From: Candidatus Omnitrophota bacterium
Lineage (GTDB): Bacteria; Omnitrophota; Omnitrophia; Omnitrophales; Aquincolibacteriaceae
Reading direction: 5' to 3'
Assembly (NCBI GenBank): GCA_043808175.1
Contig: JAZDFE010000007.1
Coordinates: forward strand, 16,099-80,098
Length of the DNA: 64,000 bases
A program made the position numbers and the translations under genes. Under the pieces are notes generated by a model, which was not told the origin of the DNA, searched no databases, and saw only the letters and a program-made list of their open reading frames with translations. Every line of letters begins with the position of its first letter. Position 1 is the stretch's first letter. Positions 4,569-64,000 of this stretch are shown here, in pieces.

Positions 4569-5537
4569 ATGATGAAAATCGTTCTATTCTCTCTAATAAT
4601 GACTTTATCCGTGCCATTCGCCCGCGCCGCGGAACAGGAATTGCTGGATCGCGTGGTGGCGGTGGTCAATGACGAGGTCATCACCCAGGCCGAACTGGAT
4701 ACTTTCCTCCGCCCGATCTATGAACAATACAGCAAGGAATACAGCGGCGCGGAATTGGTGAAAGCGATCGACGAGGTTCGCCAAAAGATCCTAGGCCAGA
4801 TGATCGAGGATAAGCTTGTATACCAGGAAGCGGTCCTGATGGGGATCGAGATCAAGGAAGAAGACGAGGAGAAGGAGTTCCAGGAGTTCAAGTCCAAGCT
4901 GGAAAAACCCGGGGACTTGGACGAGATGCTTGAGCGGGAAGGTCTTACGATGAAAGCTCTGCGCGAGCGGCTCAAGAAGCAGGCGATGGTCCGTCAGCTT
5001 CAGGATCGCGAGATCCGTTCCAAGGTGATCGTGTCTCCTGCCGAGATAGAAGCTTTTTTCAAGAATAATCCTGACAAGTTCAAGAGCAAGGAGCGCATCC
5101 GGGTCAAGTCGCTTACGATCAAGAAAAGCGAAGAAGCGCGCGCGAAGGGTTTGACGGACGAAAAAGCAAAGCAACGGATCGGGCTTTTGGCGCAAAAGAT
5201 CCGGCTCGATCGCAATTTTGATCAGATCGTCAAGGATCTTTCCGAAGATAGCCATGCCAAAGAGGAAGGCCTGGGAGAATGGATCGAGCGCGGCGCCATG
5301 ATCGAATCCGTGGATGAAGTGATCTTTAAAACTCCCGTGGGAGCAATCACCGGGGTTGTGGAGACTCCCATCGGGTATCATATTTTTCGTATCGAGGCGA
5401 AAGAGCCTGAGAAGGTTCGGACTTTTGAGGAAGTGAAAGATCAGATTGCGGGATATCTCTTTCAGGAAAAAAGTAACGTGAGGTTCCACGACTGGATGGA
5501 GGAAATCAAGAAGGCGGCCTATATTTCAATCAAATAA
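4569..5537 (+). CDS. surA: Periplasmic chaperone / peptidyl-prolyl cis-trans isomerase of the SurA family. It has a signal peptide, a SurA N-domain and one parvulin domain.
   Basis: The start is refined to MMKIVLFSLIMTLSVPFARA, which is a signal peptide. A parvulin motif is present (GVVETPIGYHIFRIE). surA-pdxA-rsmA synteny is conserved. Confidence 0.75.
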   Translation: MMKIVLFSLIMTLSVPFARAAEQELLDRVVAVVNDEVITQAELDTFLRPIYEQYSKEYSGAELVKAIDEVRQKILGQMIEDKLVYQEAVLMGIEIKEEDEEKEFQEFKSKLEKPGDLDEMLEREGLTMKALRERLKKQAMVRQLQDREIRSKVIVSPAEIEAFFKNNPDKFKSKERIRVKSLTIKKSEEARAKGLTDEKAKQRIGLLAQKIRLDRNFDQIVKDLSEDSHAKEEGLGEWIERGAMIESVDEVIFKTPVGAITGVVETPIGYHIFRIEAKEPEKVRTFEEVKDQIAGYLFQEKSNVRFHDWMEEIKKAAYISIK

Positions 5538-5543
5538 AACAGG

Positions 5544-6644
5544 ATGACGGAGGGCGGAAGGAGGATGACGAAGAAAGACAGGATGAAAAAGGGCAGAAAG
5601 CTAATAACGAAAAACCCAAGACTCCATCCATCCTCCGCCATCCGGCATCCGGTGATCGCAATCACCATGGGCGATCCGGGCGGCATCGGCCCCGAGATCC
5701 TCGTGAAGGCCCTCCAAAAGGAAAAACCCTCCAAGCGCTTGGCCTATCTTCTGATAGGGTCCCGGCAGGCGTTTAAAACACTGTGTCAAAAAACAGGCCT
5801 TTGGCTTCCGTTTCAAACCGCTCCTTCCGTTCTTTCCGGGTCCCTTCGCGCCGGGAATATTTACTTTCTTGATGTTTCACAGGGACCTTCCGGTAACGAG
5901 ACATTTCAAATAGGGAAGTTATACCGCGAAAACGGGCGGCTTGCGCTCTTGGCGATCAAAAAAGCAGCCTCTTTGGCAAAACAAGGGATCATCGATGCGA
6001 TCGTGACCGCGCCGGTGAACAAGACAGCGATCCGCCTTGTCGACGGAAAATTCATCGGCCACACGGAGTTCCTCGCCGGGAAAGCCAAGGTCCGGCGATT
6101 TGCCATGATGTTCATGAGCCCTCGCCTTAATGTGACGCTTGCGACCATTCACGTGCCGCTCAAAAAAGTAAGCGGGCTGCTCACAAAAAAGTCCATCCTT
6201 GAAAAGATCCGCCTGACGAATGAAATGCTTAAAGAAGGGCTCGCCATCAAAAAACCCAGGATCGCGATCTGTGCTTTGAACCCGCACGGCAAAGAATTCG
6301 GGGAGGAAGAGACGAAAGTGATCGAACCTGCAGTCCGTGCGGCATGCCGCGAGGGCATGGACGCTTCGGGGCCGTTTTCGGCCGATCTTCTTTTCCATGC
6401 CGCTTATCAGGGTCGATATGATGCGGTGATCGGTATGTACCATGATCAGGCGCTCGCGCCGTTCAAGCTGATCGCGTTCCACGACGGCGTGAACGTCACA
6501 CTCGGGCTTCCCTATGTCCGCACCTCTCCGGACCACGGCACGGCTTTTGATATTGCTTATCAGGGCAAGGCCGATCCTTCCTCCATGCTTGCGGCGCTCC
6601 GCCTTGCCGAGAAAGCCGTACTTGCGAAATGCTCACGCAGATAG
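5544..6644 (+). CDS. pdxA: 4-hydroxythreonine-4-phosphate dehydrogenase PdxA. The true start is possibly the internal GTG near 5652; the upstream 36 codons encode an RHP-rich leader.
   Basis: PdxA N-terminal signature is present (IAITMGDPGGIGPEI) with downstream PdxA/PdxA2 family sequence. An AGGAGG ribosome-binding site plus ATG lies at about 5560-5568. Confidence 0.85.
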   Translation: MTEGGRRMTKKDRMKKGRKLITKNPRLHPSSAIRHPVIAITMGDPGGIGPEILVKALQKEKPSKRLAYLLIGSRQAFKTLCQKTGLWLPFQTAPSVLSGSLRAGNIYFLDVSQGPSGNETFQIGKLYRENGRLALLAIKKAASLAKQGIIDAIVTAPVNKTAIRLVDGKFIGHTEFLAGKAKVRRFAMMFMSPRLNVTLATIHVPLKKVSGLLTKKSILEKIRLTNEMLKEGLAIKKPRIAICALNPHGKEFGEEETKVIEPAVRAACREGMDASGPFSADLLFHAAYQGRYDAVIGMYHDQALAPFKLIAFHDGVNVTLGLPYVRTSPDHGTAFDIAYQGKADPSSMLAALRLAEKAVLAKCSRR

Positions 6645-29640: not shown

Positions 29641-29716
29641 ACAATGCGGGCCACGATCCACGCGTCACGCTTTTCGTGGCCCGTAGTTCATGACACAAGG
29701 AACGCGAAGGCAACAA

Positions 29717-31102
29717 ATGATTAGAACCTTTTTATACAATCTGGGGTTCATGGTGTTCGGGGTCTTTTATTTCCCGATTTTCCTGACAAAACTCCGTCAA
29801 GCCGAGGATCCGGGGGCGCTGTGGAAAGAACGCCGTGGGATCTTTCCGAAGGACTGGGCCGGAAAATTTGCCGGAAAAAAGATCGTCTGGCTTCACGCCG
29901 TGAGCGTGGGAGAAGTGATGGCCATTGAAAAGTTCATTCACGAATGGCTTGCCTCCGCGCCGGGATATGAACTGTTGCTAACGACCGTTACGCCGACCGG
30001 GCAGAGGATCGCGAAAAAACTCGCGGGCGAGCGGGTCCATGTCTGTTATTTCCCGTTCGACCTCACCCCGGTCGTGAAACATTTTCTCGATCTTTTCAGG
30101 CCGGTTTGTTTGTTGCTCGTGGAGACCGAGATCTGGCCGAACCTCTTGACCGAAGCCAAGCGACGGAACATTCCGGTGGGTGTAGTGAACGCCCGGCTCT
30201 CGGAACGTTCATTCAAAAGGTATAAGCTTTTTCCATGGCTTTTTAAACCCTTGTGGGAAAAACTAGATTTTGTGCTCACACAATCGGAAGAAGATGCGGC
30301 CCGTTTTCGGAAGTTGGGCGTTACGGAAGGATCCGTGCGAGATATGGGGAATATGAAATTCGATCAGGCAGAATGGGCCGCCGAGGGTGGGGTGGACGTG
30401 GCGGGATTGCGGCAGGCCTGGGGGTATGCCGCCGAAGATCTTGTATGGATCGCGGGCAGCACGCATCCGGGGGAAGAAGAAATGCTCATGGCCGCTTTTA
30501 AAGCGTTGCGCGAACGGTTTCCGGCGCTCAAATTGATCCTCGCGCCGCGCCACATCGAACGTTCGGAGAGTCTTTTGAAGCAATTGGGAAAATATGGTTT
30601 TAACATGGCTTCGTCAACAAGCCCAGTTCTCCATCAAAAAAAAGAAGGCCCGGGACCTGATCTGCAGATCCTGGATCGGCTGGGCATTCTCAAGAATCTG
30701 TACGGAATCGCAGACTTTGTGTTCATGGGCGGGAGCCTGATCCCTCACGGGGGTCAGAATCCGATCGAGCCCGCGCGTTTTAGCAAAGCTATCCTCCATG
30801 GACCACATGTTTTTAACTTTCACAAGATCTACCACCAGCTCGATCATGACGGTGGCGCTTTCAGGATCTCGGCTCCGGACGAACTGTCGTCCGCGGCGGC
30901 GGAGATCCTCGCGAATGAAAGCAGGCGTCATGAAATGGGGCAAAAAGCTTTTCAGATCGTCAACCGTCTACGGGGTGCCAGCAAACGTCAGGCCGGGTGG
31001 ATCCTGACGTTTCTCAGGAGCCGGTACTCTCAAGAAAGGATTACAAGCAATGGACAGCATGAAGAATTACTTTCGTCTCTTGGCAGAGGACAAGCAAAAT
31101 GA
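29717..31102 (+). CDS. waaA: 3-deoxy-D-manno-octulosonic acid (Kdo) transferase.
   Basis: An N-terminal membrane anchor and a GT30 core are present (WLHAVSVGEVMA, TVTPTGQ, LVETEIWPNL, FVGGSLIPHGGQNPIEPA). The 3' end overlaps lpxK by about 50 nt. Confidence 0.85.
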   Translation: MIRTFLYNLGFMVFGVFYFPIFLTKLRQAEDPGALWKERRGIFPKDWAGKFAGKKIVWLHAVSVGEVMAIEKFIHEWLASAPGYELLLTTVTPTGQRIAKKLAGERVHVCYFPFDLTPVVKHFLDLFRPVCLLLVETEIWPNLLTEAKRRNIPVGVVNARLSERSFKRYKLFPWLFKPLWEKLDFVLTQSEEDAARFRKLGVTEGSVRDMGNMKFDQAEWAAEGGVDVAGLRQAWGYAAEDLVWIAGSTHPGEEEMLMAAFKALRERFPALKLILAPRHIERSESLLKQLGKYGFNMASSTSPVLHQKKEGPGPDLQILDRLGILKNLYGIADFVFMGGSLIPHGGQNPIEPARFSKAILHGPHVFNFHKIYHQLDHDGGAFRISAPDELSSAAAEILANESRRHEMGQKAFQIVNRLRGASKRQAGWILTFLRSRYSQERITSNGQHEELLSSLGRGQAK

Positions 31103-32099
31103 TCCGACGAGCGGAGTTCTCTCCGCGCTTCTTTCTCTTGCGGCATGGGGGTACGGGCTCGGGGTCCGGACATTTCGCTGGCTTTATGAGAACAAGGTGT
31201 TGGCGCGCAAACGTCTTCCGTATCCGGTCGTCAGTGTCGGCAATCTGACTTGGGGCGGCACGGGGAAAACGCCTTTTGTGGAATACCTCGCGCGCAAGAT
31301 CGGTATACACCGGCGCGTGCCTCTGGTCCTCACGCGCGGCTACAGTCATGATGAGGCCTTGGAACTTCAGAATCATCTTCCGACCGCGGTGATCGGCGTC
31401 GGCAAGGATCGCGCGAAGGTCGCCGAGCGCGTCAAAACGGAAAAACGGCATGTGGATATCGCCATCCTCGACGACGGACTTCAGCATCAGATCCTTCAAC
31501 GGGACGTCGATATCGTGGTCGTCAACTCCTTGAACCCTTTTGGCAACGGAAAGCTCATTCCGCGCGGCATTTTGCGCGAACCTCTTACCGTCTTGAAGCG
31601 TGCGGCCATCATCGTGCTAACTCACGTGAATCTCGTAAGTCCCGAGGAGCTGGGGAAGCTCAAGGAAAAGATCAAGACCCTGGCACCTCAGGCGCAAATG
31701 GTCGAGACCCTCATGGTAGTGTTGTTCCTTTATCGCGCCAAGAGCTAGGTTCTGACGGCGATCGAGAAGATGACCGGCCGGCGCGTCGCAACTTTCGCAG
31801 CGGTAGGAACACCTAGGTCCTTCCAGCTCGTCTTGCAGCGTTTTCAACTCAAGACCGTCCGGAACTTTGAATTTCTGGATCACTATGAATATACGAAGAA
31901 AGATCTTTTGAAGATCAAGGAAGTCGCGCAGTCGGCCGGCGCCGAGGAGATCATCACAACGGAAAAGGATTTTTACCGTTCCCGCGGGTTAATCACGGAG
32001 ATGCTGAATCCGCTGGTTCTTGCCGCGCGGCTCCGGGTCGTGTCGGGAGAGGAAATCCTCACCGACCGGCTTTTCCGTTTATTAGGAGTGAGAAATTAA
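31050..32099 (+). pseudogene. lpxK: Tetraacyldisaccharide 4'-kinase LpxK, interrupted by a single in-frame TAG at 31746-31748. It splits into two same-frame ORFs, 31050..31748 and 31770..32099. It is either a pseudogene, a functional split gene, a readthrough gene or a sequencing error.
   Basis: An N-terminal P-loop is present (PVVSVGNLTWGGTGKTPFVEYLARKI). A C-terminal LpxK region is also present (RRVATFAAVGTPRSF...FLDHYEY...ITTEKD). Both halves are in frame 0 and are separated only by TAG. Confidence 0.6.
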
Positions 32100-34048
32100 T
32101 GGAAGATCTGCTCGATCGGACCGCTTATCTTGTGGCCCGCATGCTCATTTTTCTTTTTGGCCAAATCCCGCTTGCCGCGGGTCTTCGGATAGGCGATTTT
32201 TTAGGGCACTGTGTGTTTTTTGTCTCAAAAAAACGGCGCATTGCTTATATCAATCTGAAAACGGCGCTTGGAAGCCAATTAACGCCGGCCGAGCGCTGGA
32301 AAACCGTGCGCGATCATTTTGGATTTATGGGGCAATCGGTCGTGGAGGTGATGTCCTTTAAGCGGATGAAACGCAAGCATCACGATCTTAACGTCAAAAC
32401 CCATGACCTCGAGCGGTACGAAGCGCTTCTTCGTTCGGGACACGGCGGCGTTCTGATCACCGCTCATTTCGGGAACTGGGAGCTTCTTCAGGTCTGGTCC
32501 GGGCTTCGCGGTACGCCGATCCATATGCTGACACGCGAGCAGAAATATCCGAGACTCAACGGATTGATCAACGAGCTTCGCGAAAGCCATGGTTCGGTTT
32601 CTATCAGCCGGGGTGCCGGCATCCGTGGGCTGATTCGGGCGCTCCGGGAGGAAAAAATGATTGGGGTCCTGGGCGACCAGTCCGCCGGTAAGACCGAGGG
32701 GATCATCTTGCCGTTCTTGGGCCGGAGGACTACGGTCCCGACTGGGGCCTTCCAGCTGGCTCACCGTACGGATGCCTTGATTATGCCATTTTTTATCGTA
32801 AGGACCGGAGGCCCGGAGCACGAGGTTTATGCCGGGGAAGTTCTGAAAGACGATCCCTCTCTCGCGCCGCAGGCGCGTGTCGAGTTTCAAGCCCGGCAAT
32901 ACCTGAAGGTGCTCGAAGGTTTTATCCGGAAATTTCCGAACCAATGGCTCTGGGAGAACAAACGGTGGAAATACTGTTGGGACAGGAAGATCGTGATCCT
33001 CTCGGACGGCAAGGCCGGGCATTTCAAACAATCCGAGGTTGTGGCGGAAATGCTTGCAGGTTTCAAAGAATTTCACGGACGCCCCGGTCTTAAGTTTGAA
33101 ACGGAAGAGATCCACGTGGAATACCGCTCGGCGCTCCACCGGACGGCTTTATTCTTGACGGCACTTTTGATGAAACCCTGGATCCAGGGAAGACTTCACT
33201 GGCTCGCGCGCTTTTTTACGCCGGAAACTCAAAAGGCGATCGAACAAGCGAACGCGGATTTCATTATTGCGGCGGGTTCCGGGCTCGCGCCGCTTCAGAG
33301 GCTTCTCGCTCAAGAGACCGGCGCGAAGTCGATCGTGATCATGAACCCGCCCTTTCCTTATTCCGTGACGAATTATGATCTCGCGATCGTGCCGGCGCAT
33401 GATGGTGGCAGGGTCCCTAAACGGACGTTCCGCTGCGTGATCATGCCGAGCGGTTACAAGACTTCGGATCGCGAGGAGGATGTGAAACAGCTGCAAGCAA
33501 AACTGGGCGAAGGGGTTCGGCCGACCCTGGCGGTGTTTCTCGGCGGCGCAACACGAAATTATGATCTGACGGTCTCGGACGCGGAAAAACTTTGCTCGAC
33601 CTTAAAGCGTGCCAGCTCGCGCGCGGGAGACTACATGATCACCACGTCGCGGCGGACTTCCGTGCATGTGGAACGATTTCTGAAGAACGCGCTCGCGCGG
33701 GATCCGGCCTGCCGGTTTCTTATGATCGCGAATGAAGACAATCCGTCTTATGCGGCGGGCGGTATGTTAGGGCTCGCGGACCTCCTGATCGTGACGGAGG
33801 ACAGTCTCGCCATGATCTCGGAAGCTGTGGGAACGGGTAAACGCGTGATCGTGCTTAGCCTCGGGGAAGGAGAGCTTCCCAAAAAGCATTACCGTTTTCA
33901 TCAGATCCTTGTCCAACGGGGACTCGTGACCTTGAGTGGTCTGGCGGACCTGGAAAAGAATATCACAGGACTTCTTAAAAAGCCGGCCACGCCAGTCCTT
34001 CAACGTGAAAAAGACGCGCTCATCGAACGGTTGGGAGCTTTAATATGA
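32099..34048 (+). CDS. Two-domain protein. The N-terminal part is a LpxL/HtrB-type lysophospholipid (lipid A late) acyltransferase. The C-terminal part is a DUF1022/ELM1-like domain of about 330 aa.
   Basis: The acyltransferase motif is present (ITAHFGNWELL). The C-terminal half starts IVILSDGKAGHFKQSEV, which is typical of bacterial ELM1/DUF1022 proteins. Confidence 0.65.
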   Translation: MEDLLDRTAYLVARMLIFLFGQIPLAAGLRIGDFLGHCVFFVSKKRRIAYINLKTALGSQLTPAERWKTVRDHFGFMGQSVVEVMSFKRMKRKHHDLNVKTHDLERYEALLRSGHGGVLITAHFGNWELLQVWSGLRGTPIHMLTREQKYPRLNGLINELRESHGSVSISRGAGIRGLIRALREEKMIGVLGDQSAGKTEGIILPFLGRRTTVPTGAFQLAHRTDALIMPFFIVRTGGPEHEVYAGEVLKDDPSLAPQARVEFQARQYLKVLEGFIRKFPNQWLWENKRWKYCWDRKIVILSDGKAGHFKQSEVVAEMLAGFKEFHGRPGLKFETEEIHVEYRSALHRTALFLTALLMKPWIQGRLHWLARFFTPETQKAIEQANADFIIAAGSGLAPLQRLLAQETGAKSIVIMNPPFPYSVTNYDLAIVPAHDGGRVPKRTFRCVIMPSGYKTSDREEDVKQLQAKLGEGVRPTLAVFLGGATRNYDLTVSDAEKLCSTLKRASSRAGDYMITTSRRTSVHVERFLKNALARDPACRFLMIANEDNPSYAAGGMLGLADLLIVTEDSLAMISEAVGTGKRVIVLSLGEGELPKKHYRFHQILVQRGLVTLSGLADLEKNITGLLKKPATPVLQREKDALIERLGALI

Positions 34049-36141
34049 AGGTGATGCAGCTCTTGCCGGCGCTTGAGCTCGGCGGGACCGAGCGCGGGGT
34101 GGTGGATCTTGCGAAAGCCATGAAAAAAGAAGGGCACGCGACCCTGGTCGTTTCATCCGGCGGGGCGCTTGTGGCCGAACTCCAGAAGATCGGGATCCCG
34201 CATTACGGGCTACCCGTGCATCAGAAATCTCTGGCGAGTTTATTCCTGGTCGAAGAGCTGGTGAAGATCATCCAGCGGGAGCGCGTGGACATCATTCACG
34301 CCCGCAGCCGCGTCCCGGCCTGGCTCGGGTGGCTCGCGGCCCGCAAGACCGGCATTCCGTTCATCACGACCTGCCACGGACATTATTCTGTTCATCCGAT
34401 GAGCTTTGTCATGGGGTGGGGGAAGCGTGTGATCGTGGCATCGCATGCCATCGGCCGGAGAATGATCGATGAATTTCATGTTCCGCCGGACAGGATCCGT
34501 TTGGTCCCGCGCGGTGTGGATCTTTCACAGTTCACATTCTCATTCGCGAAATTCGAAAAGCACAAGGGGCCGATGAGGATCATCCATATCGGACGGTTCT
34601 CGCCGGCCAAAGGCCAGGTGGAATTCCTTAAGGCCGTTCATTTATTGCGTAGCCGGCTCCCTCATTTTGAAGTTTGGATCGTCGGCTCCGAAGCCCGCGG
34701 CAGGCACCGTTACACAGATCTGATGAAAAAAACGGTGCAACAGTTCGGGCTTGAGACCTGCGTCAAGATCCTCCCGCCGACGCGTGACGTCGCAGGACTT
34801 TTGGCCCAGTCCGATCTTCTGGTGCTTTCCTCGCTGATCCCGGAGCCTTTTGGGCGGGTGGTCATTGAGGCCGGTGCCGTGGGAACCCCTGTGGTCGCGA
34901 CCTGGTTGGGCGGCGTGCGGGATATTATTGATCACAACGAGACAGGCCTTCTATTCCCTCCAAGAAATATTCCCGCGATGGCCGAGGCCATGTACGAACT
35001 TTTGACGGACCGGGAAAAGGCCAAAGCATTCGCGGTAAAGCTTCGAAAAAAAGTAGAAGAGCAATTTAATCTGGAACAAATGGTCCGGAAAACGCTCGAG
35101 ATCTATGAGGAAGTCCGCAAGCGGCGGAGGATCCTCGTGATCAAGCTTGGGGCCATGGGAGATCTCATCCTGGTCGTGCCGAGTTTAAGGATGCTCAAGG
35201 AGCGCTTCCCGGATGCGGTGATCACGCTCCTGGTCGATCGCAAACTCGCGCCGATCGTGTCGGCATGTCCTTACCTGGACGATATGATCCTGGTGGACCG
35301 GAAAAAACTTTCGAACATTTTTTATCTTTTAAAGACCGCCCGGCGCATCCGCCGGGAAGGATTTGACATGTCCATCGATCTCCATAACAACAAATGGACG
35401 CATCTTCTGGCGTATCTCGGCGGCGCGGTCCAGCGTTTCGGTTTTGAGCGCGGGAGATGGGGATGGCTTTTGAACCGTCCCGACAGGACCTTTGAGGTCG
35501 GGGATTCGCCTCTCCGCCATCAATTCCGGGTGCTGTCCAAGGCCGGGGTCATCAAATTCGATGACATGTTGGAGCTTTGGGTGAAATCCGAGAGCCTTGA
35601 AAAAGCACGCCAGATGATCGGTACGCTCGAGCCCAAAGAATCTACCCGGATCGTCGGGTTCGTGATGGGGTCCAGCCCCAACTGGCCGAGCAAACGCTGG
35701 CCTTCGGAGCATTTTGTCGATTTGGCAAAAAGGCTCTTTGAAAAATATGACGCGCGGATCGTCCTTATCGGCTCTCCTGAAGAAACGGATCTCGGGACTC
35801 CTTTTTATTCTTTCGGGTCCGGCAAGATCCTCGATCTCATCGGGAAAACAGCGTTGGAGGAACTGCCGGCTTTTTTCAAACAGCTTCATTTGGTGGTAAC
35901 AGGGGATACGGCGCCGCTTCACATGGCTGCGGCCATGAATGTCCCGGTCGTGGCCTTGTTTGGCCCGACGGACGCCAAACGTCATATTCCTCCCGGAAAA
36001 AAGATCGACGCGCTCTCACATCATCTGCCATGCCAGCCCTGCTACGAGGGTGTCTGCAAAGCCAAAGAAACGAAGGCCTGTCTTACGCATATTTCCGTGG
36101 AAGAAGTTTTCGAACATTGCCAAAGAGCGCTCGTGCCATGA
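34045..36141 (+). CDS. Fusion of a GT4 (GT-B, RfaG-like) glycosyltransferase of about 370 aa to a GT9 heptosyltransferase-like domain of about 330 aa.
   Basis: GT4 motif is present (EPFGRVVIEAGAVGTPVVATWLGGVRDII). The GT9 part reads RILVIKLGAMGDLILVVPSLRMLKERFPDA and GDTAPLHMAAAMNVPVVALFGPTD. Confidence 0.75.
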   Translation: MKVMQLLPALELGGTERGVVDLAKAMKKEGHATLVVSSGGALVAELQKIGIPHYGLPVHQKSLASLFLVEELVKIIQRERVDIIHARSRVPAWLGWLAARKTGIPFITTCHGHYSVHPMSFVMGWGKRVIVASHAIGRRMIDEFHVPPDRIRLVPRGVDLSQFTFSFAKFEKHKGPMRIIHIGRFSPAKGQVEFLKAVHLLRSRLPHFEVWIVGSEARGRHRYTDLMKKTVQQFGLETCVKILPPTRDVAGLLAQSDLLVLSSLIPEPFGRVVIEAGAVGTPVVATWLGGVRDIIDHNETGLLFPPRNIPAMAEAMYELLTDREKAKAFAVKLRKKVEEQFNLEQMVRKTLEIYEEVRKRRRILVIKLGAMGDLILVVPSLRMLKERFPDAVITLLVDRKLAPIVSACPYLDDMILVDRKKLSNIFYLLKTARRIRREGFDMSIDLHNNKWTHLLAYLGGAVQRFGFERGRWGWLLNRPDRTFEVGDSPLRHQFRVLSKAGVIKFDDMLELWVKSESLEKARQMIGTLEPKESTRIVGFVMGSSPNWPSKRWPSEHFVDLAKRLFEKYDARIVLIGSPEETDLGTPFYSFGSGKILDLIGKTALEELPAFFKQLHLVVTGDTAPLHMAAAMNVPVVALFGPTDAKRHIPPGKKIDALSHHLPCQPCYEGVCKAKETKACLTHISVEEVFEHCQRALVP

Positions 36142-36174: not shown

Positions 36175-36307
36175 TGATAGCCCAAACTTTTCATTTATTT
36201 TCCAAAACGGTAGTTTGGACAGCCCCAATTTCAACTCCGTTGAAATTGATAGATATTGGGACAGTCCAAGTCACCATCCATGAAGAACAAAGGAAGACTT
36301 GGGCGCT
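36175..36307 (+). repeat. Family-2 intergenic repeat, copy R3. It is hairpin-rich and ends at the start codon of the next heptosyltransferase.
   Basis: It shares the gtccaagtc...agacttgggcg module with the copy at 63150-63192. Hairpins: caatttcaa/ttgaaattg and ccaagtc/gacttgg. Confidence 0.6.
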
Positions 36308-37330
36308 ATGAAGATCCTCGCCGTGATGAAAAATTGGCTTGGGGACCTGCTTTTCCAGATGCCCGCGCTAGATTTGATCAAACAAAAATACCCCGAAGCC
36401 TCGATCGTTTGTATCGCACCCGAAAGGTGCCGGGAAATCCTCGAGGCTTACCCGGTGGTTTCGGAGGTCCTGAGCTTTGACGAAAAAAGCACGCACCGTT
36501 CCTGGCTCGCGAGAATGCGATTCGTTCTGGAACTGAGAAAGCGCGGACCCTGGGACCAGGGCTATCTCTTTCATCGTTCCCGTTCGCGAGCGGCGTTTCT
36601 CGCGCTCGCTGGAGTGAAAGAACGCATCGGTTACGGAAAAGGGAGAAAAGGATTCTTGTCGTGGGCGGTCGAAGAGCCCGCGTTGCCGATGCACCAGCTG
36701 GATTATTTTTTTAATATGATGAAAAGGGCCGGATTTGAGCTTCCCGCGGAAAGGGAATACCGGTTTTTTTACAAAGAAGAAGATGAACAAGTCGCGGGTG
36801 AGATTCTCGAGATGTATGGTATCGGAAAGAGCACGAAATACATTTGCTTTCATTTAGGTGCGAATTGGGAGCCCAAGCGCTGGCCGGTCGCGCATTTTGC
36901 CGCGCTCGCAGAGAAGATCGAAGCGAAATGGCAACTTCCGGTCGTAGTAACCGGCTCTCAAAATGACGAGCCCCTCTTTGAAGATTTCCTATCCAGGGTC
37001 CGTCGTGCGAAGATCATTTCTTTGATCGGAAAAACAGGACTACGCATTTCCGCCGTGATCTACAAGCATGCGGGATGTCTTGTGACCGGAGATTCCGGGC
37101 CTATGCACATCGCTTCCGGAGTCGGCGCCCCGGTCGTTGCCCTTTTTGGTCCCACGGACCCGAAACTCACCGGACCCCGCGGGAGAGGCGAGAGCATCGT
37201 GTTGCAATATGTTCCGTCAGGTTACATGGTCCCTTTTTTCGGCAAGGAACTTCCGGCAGAAGGCTGGCTTTCGCGCATCACTCCGAAGGAGGTTTTGAAT
37301 GCGGTCGAGAAAATCTTGAGAAAAACATGA
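36308..37330 (+). CDS. GT9 ADP-heptose:LPS heptosyltransferase (WaaF/WaaC family). The start is refined to ATG, giving MKILAV.
   Basis: GT9 motifs are present (MKILAVMKNWLGDLLFQMPALDLIKQKYPEA and GDSGPMHIASGVGAPVVALFGPTDP). Confidence 0.8.
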   Translation: MKILAVMKNWLGDLLFQMPALDLIKQKYPEASIVCIAPERCREILEAYPVVSEVLSFDEKSTHRSWLARMRFVLELRKRGPWDQGYLFHRSRSRAAFLALAGVKERIGYGKGRKGFLSWAVEEPALPMHQLDYFFNMMKRAGFELPAEREYRFFYKEEDEQVAGEILEMYGIGKSTKYICFHLGANWEPKRWPVAHFAALAEKIEAKWQLPVVVTGSQNDEPLFEDFLSRVRRAKIISLIGKTGLRISAVIYKHAGCLVTGDSGPMHIASGVGAPVVALFGPTDPKLTGPRGRGESIVLQYVPSGYMVPFFGKELPAEGWLSRITPKEVLNAVEKILRKT

Positions 37331-38289
37331 ATATTCTTGTCGTGACGTTGAGCAATTTCGGGGACGTGATCCTGACGACCCCCGTGATCATGGCACTTGC
37401 CCGGAAATATCCCGAGGCTCGGATCACGGTGGTGGTGGGGCCGCGCGCGAGAAGTGTTCTTCAGAGAAGCCCCGATATCCATAAGATCGTGATCTACGAC
37501 AAGAAGGCTTCTTTCCTGGAAAAATTAAAATTCATCGCAGAACTTCGCAAAGTAAAATATCACTGCGTCGTGGACCTGCGTAATACCGCCATTCCGTTCC
37601 TGGTCTCCTGCGGCAAGAAAACCCCTCTTTTCAGGAAATTCACCAAGGTCAACATGCGGGATCGTCACCTCGAAATGCTCGCGACAGTGGAACCCGGCAT
37701 TCCCCATCCCTCTCCTTTTCATTTTTTTAACCAAGAGGATGAGATCTTTGCGATGCGCACTCTGGATGCTGCGGGGATCACGGAAAAGAAAGGATGGATC
37801 CTGGTGGCGGCAGGGGCGGCCAGCGAGAGAAAACGGTGGCCGGTTCAATCCTTTAAGGAAGTGATCCAAGCGCTTCACGAGAGGACCGGCAAGAAGATCC
37901 TCCTGGTGGGAACCCTTAATGAAAGACCGGTGGCCGACAGCATTCTGAAAAAACTTCCAGGAATCGTCGGGATCCTTTGCGGTGACCTTGTTTTGCCCGA
38001 GACGGCAGCGCTTATCGCGAACGCTTCGCTTGTGATCGCTAACGACAGCGCGATCATGCATCTTGGGTTCGAATTGGGCACGCCGACTGTCGGGATCTTC
38101 GGACCGACAGACCATGAGAAATACGGACACGAAGGTCCGAAATTCCGCATTGCGCGGGAAAAGGCCCAAGGTTGTGCCTGCAGGTCCGATCAATTGCCTC
38201 GCGCCGAGCGGAGTTGTTTTCACGGACTTAAACCCGAAAAAGTGATCGGACTTTCTTTGGAGCTTCTGAATGCCACTCAATCTTCCTGA
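37327..38289 (+). CDS. GT9 heptosyltransferase. The true ATG start, MNILVVTL, overlaps the upstream stop (ATGA). The listed 404-aa ORF from 37075 is an out-of-register extension.
   Basis: GT9 motifs are present (MNILVVTLSNFGDVILTTPVIMALARKYPEA and NDSAIMHLGFELGTPTVGIFGPTDHEKYG). Confidence 0.8.
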   Translation: MNILVVTLSNFGDVILTTPVIMALARKYPEARITVVVGPRARSVLQRSPDIHKIVIYDKKASFLEKLKFIAELRKVKYHCVVDLRNTAIPFLVSCGKKTPLFRKFTKVNMRDRHLEMLATVEPGIPHPSPFHFFNQEDEIFAMRTLDAAGITEKKGWILVAAGAASERKRWPVQSFKEVIQALHERTGKKILLVGTLNERPVADSILKKLPGIVGILCGDLVLPETAALIANASLVIANDSAIMHLGFELGTPTVGIFGPTDHEKYGHEGPKFRIAREKAQGCACRSDQLPRAERSCFHGLKPEKVIGLSLELLNATQSS

Positions 38290-40666
38290 CACTCCGCGCA
38301 TTCTCATCACGCGCACCGATCGCATCGGGGACCTCGTCCTCACCACGCCGCTCTTCAAAGCCTTGCGGGAAAAATTCCCGAAAGCCTGGATCGCGGCGGT
38401 TGTGTTCCTCGAACACCGCGAAATCGTACAGGAAAATCCTTTTCTGGATGAGGTGATCCTCTATGATAAAAAAGGGAGCGAGCGCGGTCTTTGGGGGCAG
38501 TTCTGTTTTAGCCAAAAACTCCGGAACAAAAAATTTAATGTGGTGATCCATGCCCATGGTACGAACAGGATGCATCTTGCCGCGTGGTTCGCGGGGATCC
38601 CCCTGCGCATAGGTTACGCGCGCCGCGCGCCGTGGACGCTCACGCATGTTCATCCTTATAATAAAAAAGAAGGAAAAAAACAGGAGGCCGAATATCTCTT
38701 TGAGCTTCTGGATCTTTTGGGCGTGACCCCTCCCAAAGAGATCGAGACTTTTTTCCCCATCACGGACCGATCCGTCCGCTCTTTCGAGAGTTTGCGTGTG
38801 TTTCGCAAAATCCCGTACGATCGGCCCTGGATCGTTCTCAATCCCTCGGCGAGCGATGTGACCAAAATGTGGCCGGCGGAGCGCTTTGCCGAACTTGTGA
38901 CCCGGATCCAAAAGAATCATCCAAGCGTTTTTATTGCGATAGGGACCGTCCAGGACCGTTCTCTCATCGAAAGATTGATCAAAAACACTCCGGTTCCGGT
39001 CTTTGATCTGAGCGGAAGACTTTCCCTTGGAATGCTAGGCGCGCTTTTGAAGCGATCGGCCCTGCTTGTCTCCAACGATTCCGGGCCCGTGCATATCGCG
39101 ACGACGGTTGGCACGCCGGTGGTTTCCATTTTTGGGAGGTATGAGGCAGGTCTTGGGCCCAACCGCTGGCAACCGCTTGGGGAGCGTTCGCGCGTGGTCG
39201 CGAAGGATGTTTCGCGCATTCCGGAAGCCGTGCGGAAGTTCACCTACATCGATGAGATCACGGTGGATGAAGTTTTTCGGACCGCAAATGATCTATTGGG
39301 TAGTAGCGGCAAAAAGTTTTTGCGTGAAGAGGAGCCTTCCACGAAAGGGATATCGGGTGGAGGAGGGAGGATGGCAGAAACGGTTCCTCGCCATCCGCCA
39401 TCCGTCATCCGCCATCCGCAAAAGATCCGCAGGGTTTTGATCGTGCACCCCTACGGAATCGGGGATCTTCTCTTTGTGACGCCAGTTATGCGGGCGCTTC
39501 GTCTCGTCCCGACGGTCGAGACCGTCGATCTTCTTTTGGGATCCCGCACGCGGGAGGTCGTGGAGAATAATCCTCACATCAATGATATTTTCGTCGTGGA
39601 TAAGGACCGCGCTCATCGTCAGACTTGGCTCGAAAATCTTCGCGACCACTGGAAACTGGGCCGGAAACTCCGGGCCAAGCATTACGACCTGATCCTGGAT
39701 TATTCGCTGCAGCGCGAACATGCTTTTTGGGGTCGGTTCTTTCTCGGTATTCCGAAATGCGCGGGGTTTGCGTATAAAAAGCGCGCGACATTCCACAATA
39801 TCCGTTTTCCACTTCCAGAGGGGTTCTGGAAACGGCATGCCGTGGATTTTTATTGTGATCTTGCGGAGGCAGCCAGGATTCCCGTGGAAGACCGTTTTCT
39901 GGAATATTTTTTTCCCAAGCCCCATTCTCCATCAGAAGGATCAAAGGTTAATGGGACTAGCCCTGGCGACCTTTTAGGAAAAGAAAATAGATGCCAGGGC
40001 AAGCACGAATCTTTGATCGAAGCAGAGATTGCCGGAAAGTTAAAACTTCTGCCGGAACGTTTTCTCGCGGTCGCTCCCGGCGGCGGGGATTCGTGGGGGA
40101 AGGAAGCTTCTTTCAAGCGCTGGCCTGTGAAGTATTTCGCGGCATTGATCGAAAAACTTCAAATGGAACGAAACATCCGCGGCGTCGCCATCCTGGGCAG
40201 TCGTTCCGAGCGGGCGCTGTGTGAAGAATTGCAGGCGATGATCGAGCCCCATTCTCCATCAAAAGCATCAAAGGTTAATGGGACTAGTCCCGGCAACCTT
40301 TTAAGAAACGAAAATAGAAGTCAGGACAAGCCACCCTCAGTCGTGCTGGCGGGGGAGACAAGCCTCACGCAAACGGCCATGGTCCTCAAAAAGTCCGCGC
40401 TTTTTGTCGGCAACGACGGAGGCCTGGTTCATTTGGCGCATGCGCTTCATGTGCCGCTCCTGGCTTTTTACGGGCCCGTGCCGCCCGAAGTGTACGGACC
40501 CTACCCGCCATCGCCTGATGCGATCGCCATCTTCAAACGAGGATTAAAATGCCGTCCGTGTTACTACAAATTCCGCTATCATAAAAAGTGTCCAACGATC
40601 GCGTGTCTTACAGATTTAAAGCCGGAAGAGGCGCTTGAACAGACAAAGGGTCAGGTGCCTTTTTGA
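38270..40666 (+). CDS. 798-aa ORF with two complete GT9 heptosyltransferase domains in tandem. The second begins at an in-frame AGGAGG ribosome-binding site plus ATG at 39371. The second domain carries two family-1 repeat insertions.
   Basis: Domain 1 reads ILITRTDRIGDLVLTTPLFKALREKFPKA ... NDSGPVHIATTVGTPVVSIFGR. Domain 2 reads RVLIVHPYGIGDLLFVTPVMRAL ... GNDGGLVHLAHALHVPLLAFYGP. There is no stop between the two domains. Confidence 0.7.
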   Translation: MPLNLPDTPRILITRTDRIGDLVLTTPLFKALREKFPKAWIAAVVFLEHREIVQENPFLDEVILYDKKGSERGLWGQFCFSQKLRNKKFNVVIHAHGTNRMHLAAWFAGIPLRIGYARRAPWTLTHVHPYNKKEGKKQEAEYLFELLDLLGVTPPKEIETFFPITDRSVRSFESLRVFRKIPYDRPWIVLNPSASDVTKMWPAERFAELVTRIQKNHPSVFIAIGTVQDRSLIERLIKNTPVPVFDLSGRLSLGMLGALLKRSALLVSNDSGPVHIATTVGTPVVSIFGRYEAGLGPNRWQPLGERSRVVAKDVSRIPEAVRKFTYIDEITVDEVFRTANDLLGSSGKKFLREEEPSTKGISGGGGRMAETVPRHPPSVIRHPQKIRRVLIVHPYGIGDLLFVTPVMRALRLVPTVETVDLLLGSRTREVVENNPHINDIFVVDKDRAHRQTWLENLRDHWKLGRKLRAKHYDLILDYSLQREHAFWGRFFLGIPKCAGFAYKKRATFHNIRFPLPEGFWKRHAVDFYCDLAEAARIPVEDRFLEYFFPKPHSPSEGSKVNGTSPGDLLGKENRCQGKHESLIEAEIAGKLKLLPERFLAVAPGGGDSWGKEASFKRWPVKYFAALIEKLQMERNIRGVAILGSRSERALCEELQAMIEPHSPSKASKVNGTSPGNLLRNENRSQDKPPSVVLAGETSLTQTAMVLKKSALFVGNDGGLVHLAHALHVPLLAFYGPVPPEVYGPYPPSPDAIAIFKRGLKCRPCYYKFRYHKKCPTIACLTDLKPEEALEQTKGQVPF
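39917..40005 (+). repeat. Family-1 intragenic repeat, copy B. It is in-frame in GT9 domain 2 and translates as PHSPSEGSKVNGTSPGDLLGKENRCQGKHE.
   Basis: It is homologous to copies A and C. The internal inverted repeat is gccctggcg (39960-39968) pairing with tgccagggc (39992-40000). Confidence 0.8.
40244..40331 (+). repeat. Family-1 intragenic repeat, copy C. It is in-frame in GT9 domain 2 and translates as PHSPSKASKVNGTSPGNLLRNENRSQDKPP. Its hairpin arm is degenerate.
   Basis: By eye it is about 80% identical to copy B over some 88 bp (cccattctccatca...aaggttaatgggactag...aaaatagaag). Confidence 0.8.
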
Positions 40667-49049: not shown

Positions 49050-49994
49050 ATGGCCAAGCGCAAATTCTATCGCTATCCGCTTTATCTTTTAACAAGGCTC
49101 GGAGCGGAGCTTCTGCTGGTTCTGCCTCGAAGTTGGGCATTGGCGCTCGCGAAGGGGGTCGGGTATTTAGGATACCGGGTCGTTTCGCGCCAAAGAACAA
49201 AGATCCTTGAAAATCTGAAGTTTGCGTACGGCAACACGGAAAGTCCTGCGGCATTGGAAACGACTGGCCGTCGGGTGATGGGACATATGCTCCAGACGGC
49301 TGTGGATTTCCTGCGTTTTGCCACGCTTTCACGTGACCTGGCGGCCTTGTTTGTGGAGGCGGGTGATGCCTATTCTTTTTGCAAAGATATTTTGCAAGAA
49401 GGGAGAGGGCTCATTATAATGACGGCGCACATGGGCAACTGGGAACTTTTAGCCGGGATTTTTGGCCTGCAGGGTTTCCGGGGCGCCGTCGTCGGTCGAC
49501 GCATCTATTATGAGCCGTACAATCGGTGGATCGTAGGTTTGCGGAGCGCCGTAGGGGTCCGGACCATCTATCAAGATGAGGCGGTCAGGCAAGTTCATGC
49601 TTGTTTGAAGGCGGGCGAGATCGTCGGGCTTTTGCCGGATCAGGATCGAGATAATGTCCGTGGTATTTTCGTGGATTTTTTTGGAAAGCCGGCTTATACG
49701 TCCGTGGCGCCAGTGAAATTTGCCATGGCTTCAAAAACGCCGATCCTTCCGGCTTTTATGATCCGGATGCCCGGGAATCGCTACAAGCTCTTTTTAGGTA
49801 ACCTGATACGGCCGAAGATCGAAGGCAATGACCGGACGGCCTCGATCCGAAAATACACAGAAGCCTGGATGAAAGATTTTGAAGAAGTGATCCGCCATTA
49901 CCCGGAGCAATGGGGATGGATGCATGACCGCTGGAAAACGAAGCCTGACGAGGTTGCCGCGGCGGAACTTAAGGAGACAGTGAAACACTCATGA
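49050..49994 (+). CDS. Lipid A biosynthesis late acyltransferase (LpxL/HtrB family).
   Basis: The motif IIMTAHMGNWELLAGIF (HX4E) is present, and the protein is about 310 aa. Confidence 0.75.
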   Translation: MAKRKFYRYPLYLLTRLGAELLLVLPRSWALALAKGVGYLGYRVVSRQRTKILENLKFAYGNTESPAALETTGRRVMGHMLQTAVDFLRFATLSRDLAALFVEAGDAYSFCKDILQEGRGLIIMTAHMGNWELLAGIFGLQGFRGAVVGRRIYYEPYNRWIVGLRSAVGVRTIYQDEAVRQVHACLKAGEIVGLLPDQDRDNVRGIFVDFFGKPAYTSVAPVKFAMASKTPILPAFMIRMPGNRYKLFLGNLIRPKIEGNDRTASIRKYTEAWMKDFEEVIRHYPEQWGWMHDRWKTKPDEVAAAELKETVKHS

Positions 49995-50875
49995 TCAAGC
50001 GTCTTGTTTTTATCTTTGTCGTGCTTGTGGTGTTCTATGTGTTTTTCGTGCAGATGCAGGTGGTGATCGCCCGCAAGCAAAGGGCCGAACAAGGGGCCGT
50101 GCAACCCTCCGAACAGAAACCGCAGAAAGTCCTCTCTTTTTCATTCACCAAGTACACGACCGAAGGGCAACGCGAAATCGAGATCGAAGGCGATTCCGCA
50201 AATATTCTCTCTAATACGGTGCAGCTGATGAATGTGATGGCCAAGGCGTATGCCGAAGAAGTCCCCGTGACCGTCACGGCAGATCGCGGCAATTACGACA
50301 AGAAAAAGAACAAGATCCATCTTGAAAAAAATGTTGTGGCTACGACCGATGACGGGACGCGCCTCATGACCGAGGCTCTGGACATGAGTCCTTCGGAGCA
50401 CATTGTGGAAACCGATCTACCGACACAGGTCAAGAAGGACAATATTAATGTGGAGGGCACCGGCGCTCGGGCAGAGACGAACCTGAAAAAAGTGAAATTT
50501 CAAAAAAATGTGACGGTAGTAGTACAGAATAACGAGGATAAAGAAACCGGGCCGACGACCATCACTTGCGACGGGCCCCTTGTGGTCGACTACGAAAAGA
50601 ATATCGCGCATTTCAGAGACAACGTCGTGGCGCAGGATTCCCGCGGGAAGCTTACGGCCGATACGATGGATGTTTATTACAACCGCGTGAGCCGTCGCGT
50701 TTCAAAGATCGTGTCCGCGGGCGACGTGGTGATCGAGAACCCCGACGGGAATAAGACCTACTCGGATAGCGTGATCTATCTGGCGGACGAAGGGCGGATC
50801 ATTTTGGGCGGGGACACGGAAGCCCTTTATTTTGGCGGGGATGCTCCCAACGGTCTTGGAAAGGGAGTGGTCTGA
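49991..50875 (+). CDS. lptC: LPS export protein of the LptC/LptA (OstA-N) fold. It has an N-terminal membrane anchor and appears to contain both an LptC-like and an LptA-like module.
   Basis: It has a transmembrane helix (LVFIFVVLVVFYVFFV). Its position upstream of lptB fits. An OstA-like repeat segment is present (TITCDGPLVVDYEKNIAHFRDNVVAQDSRGKLTADTMDVYYN). Confidence 0.55.
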   Translation: MIKRLVFIFVVLVVFYVFFVQMQVVIARKQRAEQGAVQPSEQKPQKVLSFSFTKYTTEGQREIEIEGDSANILSNTVQLMNVMAKAYAEEVPVTVTADRGNYDKKKNKIHLEKNVVATTDDGTRLMTEALDMSPSEHIVETDLPTQVKKDNINVEGTGARAETNLKKVKFQKNVTVVVQNNEDKETGPTTITCDGPLVVDYEKNIAHFRDNVVAQDSRGKLTADTMDVYYNRVSRRVSKIVSAGDVVIENPDGNKTYSDSVIYLADEGRIILGGDTEALYFGGDAPNGLGKGVV

Positions 50876-62059: not shown

Positions 62060-63079
62060 ATGACGAGCACAAAGATCATTTGCACGCTGGGTCCCGCTTC
62101 AAGCCGGGCCAATGTCCTGCGGCAGATGATGCGTGCGGGAATGGATGTGGTACGGCTTAATTTTTCCCACGGAACGCTTGCGGAGCACCGGGAGAAGATC
62201 TGTCTCATCAGAGCGCTGAACAAAAAATATCGCCGCCGCATCCAAATCCTGGGAGATCTCGAAGGTTATCGAATGAGGATTGGTGAGCTGAAGGGGCAGA
62301 AGCCGGTCGAGGTCAAGAAGCGGCAGATTCTCTGGCTCACGACGGAAAACACGGTCGGAGAAAATTCCCATATTCCCTTTGATTGGGTGGGTTCTTTGCG
62401 ACCTATCAAACCAGGCCAGCTTATCTACATTGACGACGGTCTTATTGCCCTCAAAGTCGAGGCTCGTGATCAAAAAAATCTCAAGACTCGCGTGATCGTT
62501 GGAGGTGCGATCAAAGAACGCAAAGGAATCAATATGCCTGGCGTGCAATTGGATGTCACGGGGCTGACCCGGAAGGACAGGGAGGACATTCATTTTTGCA
62601 TCGAGCATAAAGTGGATTATATCGCACAATCTTTCGTACGGAATAAAAGGGATATTTTAGATCTCCGGTCTCATCTGAAAAGCCACTCCCACGAATGCGA
62701 CGTGATCGCCAAGATTGAGAACCGGGAAGGGATCCGAAATATCGATGAAATCATAAGCGTTTGCGAAGGGATCATGGTCGCACGCGGGGATATGGGGATC
62801 TCTGTTCCGATTTATGAAGTGCCCTCGATTCAGAAGAAGATCATTAAGAAATGCAATAAGGCGAAGAAATTCGTGATCACGGCGACCCAGATGCTTGAGA
62901 GCATGACGGAACATCCCATCCCGACCCGCGCCGAAGTCAGTGATGTGGCGAACGCAATTCTCGATGGAACGGACTACGTGATGCTTTCCGCCGAATCTGC
63001 CGCTGGCCTTTATCCCGTTCAATGCGTTGAAATGATGAGCCAGATCATTAAATTTACCGAAAAAAATCTTAGACAATGA
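62060..63079 (+). CDS. pyk: Pyruvate kinase, short form (339 aa; TIM-barrel plus lid domains only). The C-terminal allosteric domain of about 120 aa is absent.
   Basis: PK signatures are present ([53 protein letters not shown]). The ORF ends at TGA 63077-63079, exactly at the edge of a repeat insertion. Confidence 0.8.
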
Positions 63080-63084
63080 CTGTC
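63058..63084 (+). repeat. Left copy of a roughly 26-bp direct repeat (gaaaaaaatcttagacaATGActgtc). It contains the pyk stop codon. The right copy at 63221-63247 contains the ABC-F start codon.
   Basis: A 16-bp exact core, aatcttagacaatgac, is present in both copies. Flanks differ at 2 positions. Confidence 0.75.
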
Positions 63085-63230
63085 CCAACACCTATCAATT
63101 TCTACGTAGCGGCACTTGATTCTGTTTCAAAATGAAGGTAATCAGTGCCGCCCAAGTCGCCATTGATTAAAAGAAAACAAAGACTTGGGCGGAAATTGGG
63201 CGGTTATCATCAACCCTAATGGAAAAGAAT
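63085..63230 (+). repeat. Family-2 intergenic repeat, copy R2. It has an 11-bp perfect stem (ccgcccaagtc/gacttgggcgg) and a second hairpin (gcggcacttgatt/aatcagtgccgc).
   Basis: It is homologous to R1 (52209-52350) and R3 (36175-36307); see the shared modules listed there. Confidence 0.65.
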
Positions 63231-63238
63231 CTTAGACA

Positions 63239-64000
63239 ATGACCGTCTTATTACAAGTCAATGAATTGCACAAGGCCTATGGCGCTGTAACGATCCTCGA
63301 TAACGCCACCGCGTCATTCGGAGATGATCAAAAGATCGGTGTGATCGGCCGCAACGGGGCCGGGAAATCCACGCTTTGCCGTATCATCACCGGACACGAA
63401 TCGGCTGAAAGCGGTACCGTCACGCGCAACGCTGCGTTGCGCCTCTCCTATCTCGAACAGCATGATACGTTCAAGCCCGGGGAGCGGGTGGTGGACTTCC
63501 TGATGCGCACCACGCGGAGCGAGCATTGGGAGTGCGGGCAGATCGCCGCGCGGTTCCAGCTTGAAAATGAGATCCTTGAAGAATCCGTACGGAATCTTCC
63601 GGGAGGTTTTCAGACGCGCGTGAAGCTTGCGGCAATGCTTTTGGGCGACCCCAATTTCCTGATTCTTGACGAACCTAGCAACTATTTAGATTTGAGCACG
63701 TTGATCCTTTTAGAAAATTTTCTGCTCGATTTCAAAGGCGGGTATCTGGTCGTCTCCCACGATCGGGAATTCTTGAAGCGGACCTGTGATCACACGCTTG
63801 AGGTCGAGAACGGAGGGCTTGCCCTTTATCCCGGGGACATTGAAGAGTATTTCGAATTCAAGGAGGAGCAACTCGCCCAGAAACAGGCCTATAACCGCGG
63901 TCTCGACAAGAAACGGGAACAACTCCAGATCTTCATTGACCGGTTCAAGGCGAAGGCTTCCACGGCGACGCGTGCACAGTCGAAAATGAAACAACTCGCA
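63239..64000 (+). CDS. ABC-F family ATP-binding protein (N-terminal part; continues beyond the window).
   Basis: The start reads MTVLLQVNELHKAYGAVTIL. Walker A (GRNGAGKST), the signature (LPGGFQTRVKLA) and Walker B (LILDEPSNYLD) are present, then the inter-domain linker begins. Confidence 0.8.
   Translation, partial: MTVLLQVNELHKAYGAVTILDNATASFGDDQKIGVIGRNGAGKSTLCRIITGHESAESGTVTRNAALRLSYLEQHDTFKPGERVVDFLMRTTRSEHWECGQIAARFQLENEILEESVRNLPGGFQTRVKLAAMLLGDPNFLILDEPSNYLDLSTLILLENFLLDFKGGYLVVSHDREFLKRTCDHTLEVENGGLALYPGDIEEYFEFKEEQLAQKQAYNRGLDKKREQLQIFIDRFKAKASTATRAQSKMKQLA

Follow-up and report, generated by a model that had tools for sequence, protein, structure and literature searches.

Why should an essential gene carry a stop codon in the middle of its reading frame? 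In the Candidatus Omnitrophota metagenome-assembled genome (MAG) considered here, the gene for the lipid A kinase LpxK is interrupted by a single amber codon, and we asked whether this codon belongs to the organism at all and, if it does, whether the cell bypasses it, lives with a divided enzyme or has lost the gene. We analyzed it within a window of 64 kb, by which we mean the whole stretch of DNA under study (Table 1). Translating positions 31050-32099 straight through gives 349 codons with a sole internal stop (...LFLYRAKS*VLTAIEKMTGRRVATFAAVGTP...) and no frameshift. The letters at 31740-31749 are aagagcTAGg, and the open reading frames on the two sides, 31050..31748 (232 aa) and 31770..32099 (109 aa), share a frame, with both starts divisible by 3. 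The N-terminal piece matches Pfam family PF02606 up to position 206 of 328 in the profile (E 1.5e-44) and the C-terminal piece matches positions 226-321 of 328 (E 1.5e-13), and the joined pieces reach 210 bits against a cut-off of 27 (E 5e-62). A sequence-only reading of this DNA had described an lpxK split by one in-frame amber codon, with no frameshift, into two frames that jointly make a complete LpxK. Coordinates, frame and Pfam matches all agree with it, both halves belong to PF02606 in consecutive profile ranges, and the interruption is confirmed exactly as it was described. A member of the LpxK family is expected to be encoded as one uninterrupted polypeptide, which this frame, with TAG at codon 233, does not provide. 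The gene may begin slightly further downstream than we have placed it, at ATG 31059, because the LpxK of some relatives starts at the methionine of MKNYF (346 aa).

Table 1. Features of the lpxK locus (window coordinates)
Feature	Position	Strand	Remarks
waaA (Kdo transferase)	29690..31102	+	intact; Pfam PF04413, E 1e-64; overlaps lpxK start by 53 nt
lpxK (tetraacyldisaccharide 4'-kinase)	31050..32099	+	349 codons and TAA stop; one in-frame interruption; Pfam PF02606, E 5e-62
Cluster of four lineage-private transversions	31717..31753	+	37 nt; plus one synonymous transition at 31751
In-frame TAG, lpxK codon 233	31746..31748	+	ancestral AAG (Lys); A>T at 31746
Stretch between TAG and ATG 31770	31749..31769	+	21 nt in frame (VLTAIEK); ordinary lpxK coding sequence in relatives; no indel
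Distal 109 lpxK codons	31770..32099	+	C-terminal Rossmann-like domain, second linker strand, last helix; Q259, H278, K306
lpxL-type lipid A acyltransferase + ELM1-like fusion	32099..34048	+	PF03279 + PF06258; intact, 649 aa

Apart from the stop codon, the predicted protein keeps its catalytic residues. The residues important in Aquifex aeolicus LpxK are K51/T52 of the P-loop, D99/E100, D138/D139, Q240, H261 and K280, of which Q240, H261 and K280 sit in the C-terminal domain (PMC6286764). In the LpxK of the window, G69-G70-T71-G72-K73-T74, D101-E102, D141-D142, Q259, H278 and K306 are all intact, and all of them are invariant in its relatives. We located the break on an AlphaFold model of a 91% identical relative (P0001; mean pLDDT 85.6, pTM 0.83), which has the two-domain LpxK fold and matches the A. 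aeolicus structures 4LKV, 4EHX and 4EHY with E values of 2e-20 to 9e-20 and TM scores of 0.66-0.79. In this model residue 233 falls in a short surface loop (230-234) that follows the long first linker strand (216-229) and leads into the C-terminal Rossmann-like domain, which starts at residue 245 with its opening strand (245-250). The distal fragment contains the second linker strand (322-332) together with the last helix. The truncated product of 232 aa should be inactive, because it would be made without Q259, H278 and K306, and the H261A exchange in the A. aeolicus enzyme lowers kcat 850-fold (PMC6286764).

The gene lies in a conserved LPS neighborhood. The order xerC, waaA, lpxK, lpxL/ELM1 fusion and GT4/GT9 fusion is kept in relatives, and the start of the acyltransferase-ELM1 gene overlaps the lpxK stop (ATG within TAATG). 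About 12 LPS genes in the window are intact, the late ones being waaA, two lpxL-type acyltransferase genes, kdsA, kdsB, kdsD, lptC/A, lptB and several heptosyltransferase genes; a second lpxK is not present in the window. The locus had been credited with a full Kdo2-lipid A pathway, and the late part is indeed there and intact, but the early genes lpxA/C/D/B/H lie outside the window. Several of these genes are fused. The 649-aa fusion of the acyltransferase with the part annotated as "mitochondrial fission ELM1" is conserved and ungapped in 14 Omnitrophota relatives, and positions 34045-36141 encode an unusual 698-aa fusion of GT4 and GT9 (heptosyltransferase) domains beside the lipid A genes. 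Further on, two separate GT9 genes (36299-38289) are followed by a gene for a 798-aa protein with three GT9-matching stretches (38270-40666). At 49991-50875, one 294-aa frame joins an LptC-like to an LptA/LptD_N-like domain; lptB comes next, and the frame appears to be an LptC-LptA fusion.

Other genes of the window have features of their own. The pyruvate kinase at 62060..63079 (339 aa) consists of the barrel domain only, without the C-terminal domain of pyruvate kinases. About 23 nt covering its last codons, the stop and the next bases (AAAAATCTTAGACAATGACTGTC) recur some 160 nt later (AAGAATCTTAGACAATGACCGTC; window 63055-63250), where the copy AAGAATCTTAGACAATGACCGTC overlaps ATG 63240 of a gene for an ABC-F-type ATPase; the arrangement resembles a gene junction duplicated on both sides of a small insert. 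At 2553-4439 a 628-aa Mfd/TRCF-like protein has UvrB-interaction, CarD/RID, DEAD and Helicase_C domains; a TRCF domain was not detected at its C-terminus, and canonical Mfd proteins are much longer, at about 1,100 aa.

We compared lpxK with its counterparts in related genomes. A protein search with LpxK returned 5,869 matches, the best of them from Candidatus Omnitrophota/Omnitrophica MAGs and either unnamed or annotated as tetraacyldisaccharide 4'-kinase. Among the matches listed, more than 40 have exactly 349 aa at 54-91% identity. Taking all relatives, uninterrupted 349-aa LpxK proteins span 54-93% identity, and the closest ones of Omnitrophota MAGs are 86-93% identical to that of the window. 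A scan of GTDB species representatives yielded 79 loci, the nearest in MAGs of Omnitrophota recovered from metagenomes of fens, lakes and groundwater; the nearest genome (L003; PLLJ01000011.1, MAG fen_1321) shares about 90% DNA identity with the window. In an alignment of 43 sequences the residue at the position of the TAG is mostly K, with R or H in a few (one His). At the DNA level, codon 233 is AAG, AAA or AGG in 16 close relatives, each of which (16/16) has an uninterrupted gene of 349 codons. Because relatives encode Lys or Arg at this position, we read the TAG as a former AAG codon in which position 31746 underwent an A>T transversion. Neither the 16 close relatives nor the more than 40 wider relatives have a stop at codon 233, and an lpxK split there occurs in 0 of 81 loci and in none of more than 40 proteins examined. 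The comparison with sister genomes that the sequence-only reading had asked for thus returned a sense codon at the TAG position in every relative examined.

The sole other broken lpxK among the 81 loci (L030, UBA1443) has a frameshift adjoining Ns. The waaA gene of the nearest relative, at 4730-6050 of its contig, is also spread over two frames by an apparent frameshift, with residues 1-366 of the query aligned in frame 2 and residues 418-470 in frame 3. Since this waaA and the lpxK of L030 are frameshifted, LPS genes appear to be broken sporadically in MAGs of the clade.

We next considered whether TAG is read as sense in this organism. In about 55 plausible genes on the + strand the stop codons are TGA (28), TAA (17) and TAG (10, the one in lpxK counted). 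The other nine TAG-ended genes are rplQ, the aspartate aminotransferase gene, pdxA, rsmA, the genes for DUF7544 and DUF3108 proteins, kdsB, hpf and pgi/pmi, and each of them is matched by its family profile as far as the natural C-terminus. The view that TAG is a genuine terminator elsewhere in the window, put forward for rplQ and hpf, holds for all nine. Scans of the roughly 55 window genes with Pfam and NCBIfam profiles detected no further in-frame TAG and no other interrupted gene. Other pairs of frames in the same phase were inspected as possible broken genes, and each proved to be two separate intact genes. These results argue strongly against a reassignment of TAG: it is a regular terminator, and lpxK alone among about 55 genes holds one in frame.

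A more local form of decoding is that the TAG in lpxK is read through to a full-length protein by a suppressor tRNA(CUA), by pyrrolysine insertion or by context-dependent readthrough. Apart from this codon the frame of lpxK is without fault, and the lost Lys lies in a tolerant loop where relatives have K, R or H, so that nearly any residue inserted at codon 233 would be acceptable. A suppressor tRNA or pyl genes could also lie elsewhere in the genome, beyond the window. Against this, TAG is the natural terminator of 9 among about 54 other genes and no other gene of the set holds an in-frame TAG, ARAGORN detected no tRNA of any kind within the 64 kb, the stretch around the stop (31735-31834) folds no better than its shuffles (z = +1.11), and Rfam has no match in 30500-32600. 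The stop is conserved in none of more than 40 relatives and, being absent from all of them, nothing about it is "programmed". The earlier suggestion of programmed readthrough or suppression therefore finds no backing in conservation, RNA structure, Rfam matches or tRNA content of the window, and we regard readthrough as very improbable.

If the stop were old, the gene should show signs of decay. With nine outgroups we placed the differences that separate the window from L003, its sister, on branches. On the window branch, lpxK outside the cluster of substitutions described below has 14 nonsynonymous and 22 synonymous changes versus 61 and 139 in four flanking genes. This raw ratio, slightly above that of the flanks, is what an old, decaying pseudogene might give, with either the LPS pathway or lpxK alone being lost in the lineage, and six private changes (stop included) fall at otherwise invariant residues. 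However, the difference between the ratios is not significant (Fisher p = 0.34), and neither private-substitution counts nor three-taxon branch assignment gave a significant excess that would signal long-term relaxed selection. The gene has no indel and no second stop, its catalytic residues are intact, the other LPS genes of the window are all intact, and the private change H279Y restores the A. aeolicus residue, recreating its sequence DHY(D/E)Y (DHYDY). On the window branch the distal codons 241-349 changed 3 times nonsynonymously and 9 times synonymously, which also speaks against decay; as to a split, a new or unreal stop predicts the same ratio. Judged from these substitution patterns, lpxK has therefore been under purifying selection essentially throughout its history, so that the stop is new, unreal or compensated. 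An old pseudogene is the least probable of the readings that we weighed, and we strongly disfavor it together with TAG reassignment and programmed readthrough.

The main clue to the origin of the TAG is its surroundings, which the sequence-only reading had overlooked. Of 13 strictly private base changes in the lpxK of the window, 4 lie inside 37 nt: 31717 A>T (E223V), 31744 C>G (T232S), 31746 A>T (K233*) and 31753 G>T (R235L). Each of the four is a nonsynonymous transversion at a site that is invariant in the 16 close relatives; E223 and R235 are conserved to at least 90% down to relatives of 54-60% identity. Outside the cluster the window branch has 175 transitions versus 25 transversions (about 7:1), and A>T accounts for 0 of these 200 changes. 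With a transversion fraction of 0.20 among the nonsynonymous changes outside the cluster, the probability that four of four are transversions is 0.0015. The Poisson probability of at least four transversions in a given 37 nt is 1.3e-5, or about 0.1 after multiplication by 7,653 start positions. Clusters of private changes are also present at other tips, mostly where branches are long and the regions variable; because of these the cluster statistic alone is moderately convincing, and the argument from the spectrum weighs more. As a set, the four changes resemble a single non-standard event and not the ordinary substitution process of the lineage. The segment 31740-31753 forms a direct quasi-repeat with 31808-31821 (AAGAGCTAGGTTCT / AACACCTAGGTCCT; 14 nt, 68 nt apart), and 2 of the 4 transversions, including the one that makes the TAG, raise the similarity to the downstream copy AACACCTAGGTCCT. 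These two changes were possibly templated from the downstream copy, but the repeat is short enough for the resemblance to be due to chance.

The location of the break invites a different explanation, in which translation stops at the TAG, re-initiates at ATG 31770 and yields fragments of 232 and 109 aa that reassemble through the two inter-domain beta-strands. The loop 230-234 lies exactly between a linker strand and the C-terminal domain in the model (P0001, pLDDT 85.6), the in-frame ATG follows the stop by 21 nt, within coupling distance, and all catalytic residues are kept across the two fragments, the C-terminal one with its 3 nonsynonymous and 9 synonymous changes. E223V, T232S and R235L adjoin the break, where constraint would relax. 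However, the selection signal is equally expected of a new or unreal stop, and the neighboring changes comprise 4 transversions and 1 transition, whereas drift on this branch runs 7:1 in favor of transitions. No Shine-Dalgarno-like site precedes ATG 31770; its predicted duplex of -3.0 kcal/mol is no stronger than that of an average internal ATG (median -3.1) and weaker than at true starts (median -5.05). Moreover, M241 and the bases before it are ancestral, so that nothing is adapted for re-initiation, and no relative is split at codon 233 (81 loci, more than 40 proteins). Re-initiation at ATG 31770, as proposed earlier, is thus at odds with anti-Shine-Dalgarno pairing at the level of internal ATGs, with an ancestral M241 and with the lack of split relatives, and we think it improbable that LpxK works here as two pieces.

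A local error patch in the assembled consensus, comprising the TAG and the other changes of the cluster, is our best explanation, with a probability of roughly 0.45. Under this explanation this Omnitrophota lineage would have a normal lipid A 4'-kinase gene that selection maintains, and an AAG lysine codon of its lpxK was altered by A>T within a 37-nt patch of four atypical transversions. The patch could have come, for example, from a stretch of low-quality or low-coverage reads taken into the MAG consensus, and the real organism would make full-length LpxK of 349 aa. As expected of an artefact, the lesion lies inside a patch that is atypical for the spectrum of the lineage (four transversions in 37 nt). 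Many "pseudogenes" with internal stops in assemblies are assembly errors tied to low coverage (Cooley and Wright 2024, PMC11017572). The sporadic breaks in waaA of L003 and in lpxK of L030 fit this background. Several points count against an artefact. The cluster probability is about 0.1 once corrected, and private clusters are seen at other tips too. We detected no other sign of poor assembly in the 64 kb, neither frameshifts nor other internal stops. In addition, De Bruijn assemblers usually prune error paths, and a path with four errors would survive only where local coverage is very low.

A real multi-nucleotide mutation would give exactly the same pattern as an error patch. The stop could accordingly be a genuine, very recent loss-of-function allele that arose in the sampled strain or sub-population through a single complex mutation of four bases in 37 nt. 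Clustering and atypical spectrum suit a single mutational event as well as they suit an error, and the resemblance of two of the four changes to the stretch 68 nt downstream could reflect templated misrepair. The gene is without long-term decay, so that any real lesion must be recent. Loss of function itself is what the sequence predicts, since the catalytic residues of the C-terminal domain are lost and the N-terminal fragment alone should be inactive. Such an allele would be deleterious and short-lived, tolerable only with another copy of the gene or if LPS were dispensable, but the window has no second lpxK and all partner LPS genes in it are intact. Furthermore, purifying selection keeps this gene in every relative, so that few cells of a population should carry a nonsense allele of it. 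Only at very low coverage would so rare an allele be likely to end up in the assembly consensus. We consider a recent allele the second most likely explanation, less likely than the error patch, with which it shares every observable feature. The sequence-only reading had listed four explanations, and the likely answer is among them, as a sequencing or assembly error or a recent nonsense mutation; the other two, a split protein and readthrough, are unsupported.

The observation is an ordinary one: when a gene is intact and under selection in every relative, a lone nonsense codon in its copy from one MAG is the usual signature of assembly error or transient mutation. It has little biological weight, and its practical lesson concerns annotation. 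When the LPS capacity of this genome is inferred, lpxK should not be scored as "lost", and a tight group of atypical substitutions near an internal stop can usefully serve to flag such artefacts. To the lookup of both lpxK pieces and both neighboring proteins as exact sequences no record corresponded, and exact DNA patterns gave 0 matches in GTDB genomes and in JGI metagenomes, the latter also with Ns at all cluster sites. If it were true that the TAG haplotype is fixed, an essential enzyme would be split or suppressed, which would make the case interesting; a functional split would be a natural division of an essential enzyme of the Raetz pathway, cut before the C-terminal nucleotide-closing domain.

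The locus can be compared with several known systems. Relative to A. aeolicus LpxK (PF02606; 4EHX, 4LKV), the window protein is collinear over its full length and keeps the P-loop, the DE pair, the Walker B DD and the Q/H/K of the C-terminal domain, but its frame holds one TAG, at codon 233. The two proteins also differ by about 22 residues between RGY and DE (chain residues 79-100 of A. aeolicus LpxK, unmatched by phmmer), which are missing clade-wide in Omnitrophota. At 31335-31352 of the window (LpxK residues 96-102) the sequence is RGYSHDE, as it is throughout the Omnitrophota clade, so this motif is not specific to the window.

Systems in which TAG is reassigned or suppressed (pyrrolysine, phages with code 15, suppressor tRNAs) likewise have TAG where a sense codon is expected. 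In contrast to these, TAG in the window ends genes, there is a single in-frame TAG in about 55 genes and no tRNA(CUA) in the window, and the sequence is a bacterial chromosome and not a phage. Split genes expressed by termination-reinitiation (translational coupling) are similar in that an in-frame ATG follows the lpxK stop by 21 nt and the break falls at a domain boundary, but lpxK has no ribosome-binding site, conserved split or adapted restart sequence. The spurious internal-stop "pseudogenes" of assemblies (PMC11017572) are the class to which lpxK may belong. It differs from them in that the 64 kb hold no other break, and it resembles them in having one stop in a conserved, selected gene, absent from all relatives, inside a tight patch of atypical substitutions and in a MAG lineage with other sporadic gene breaks.
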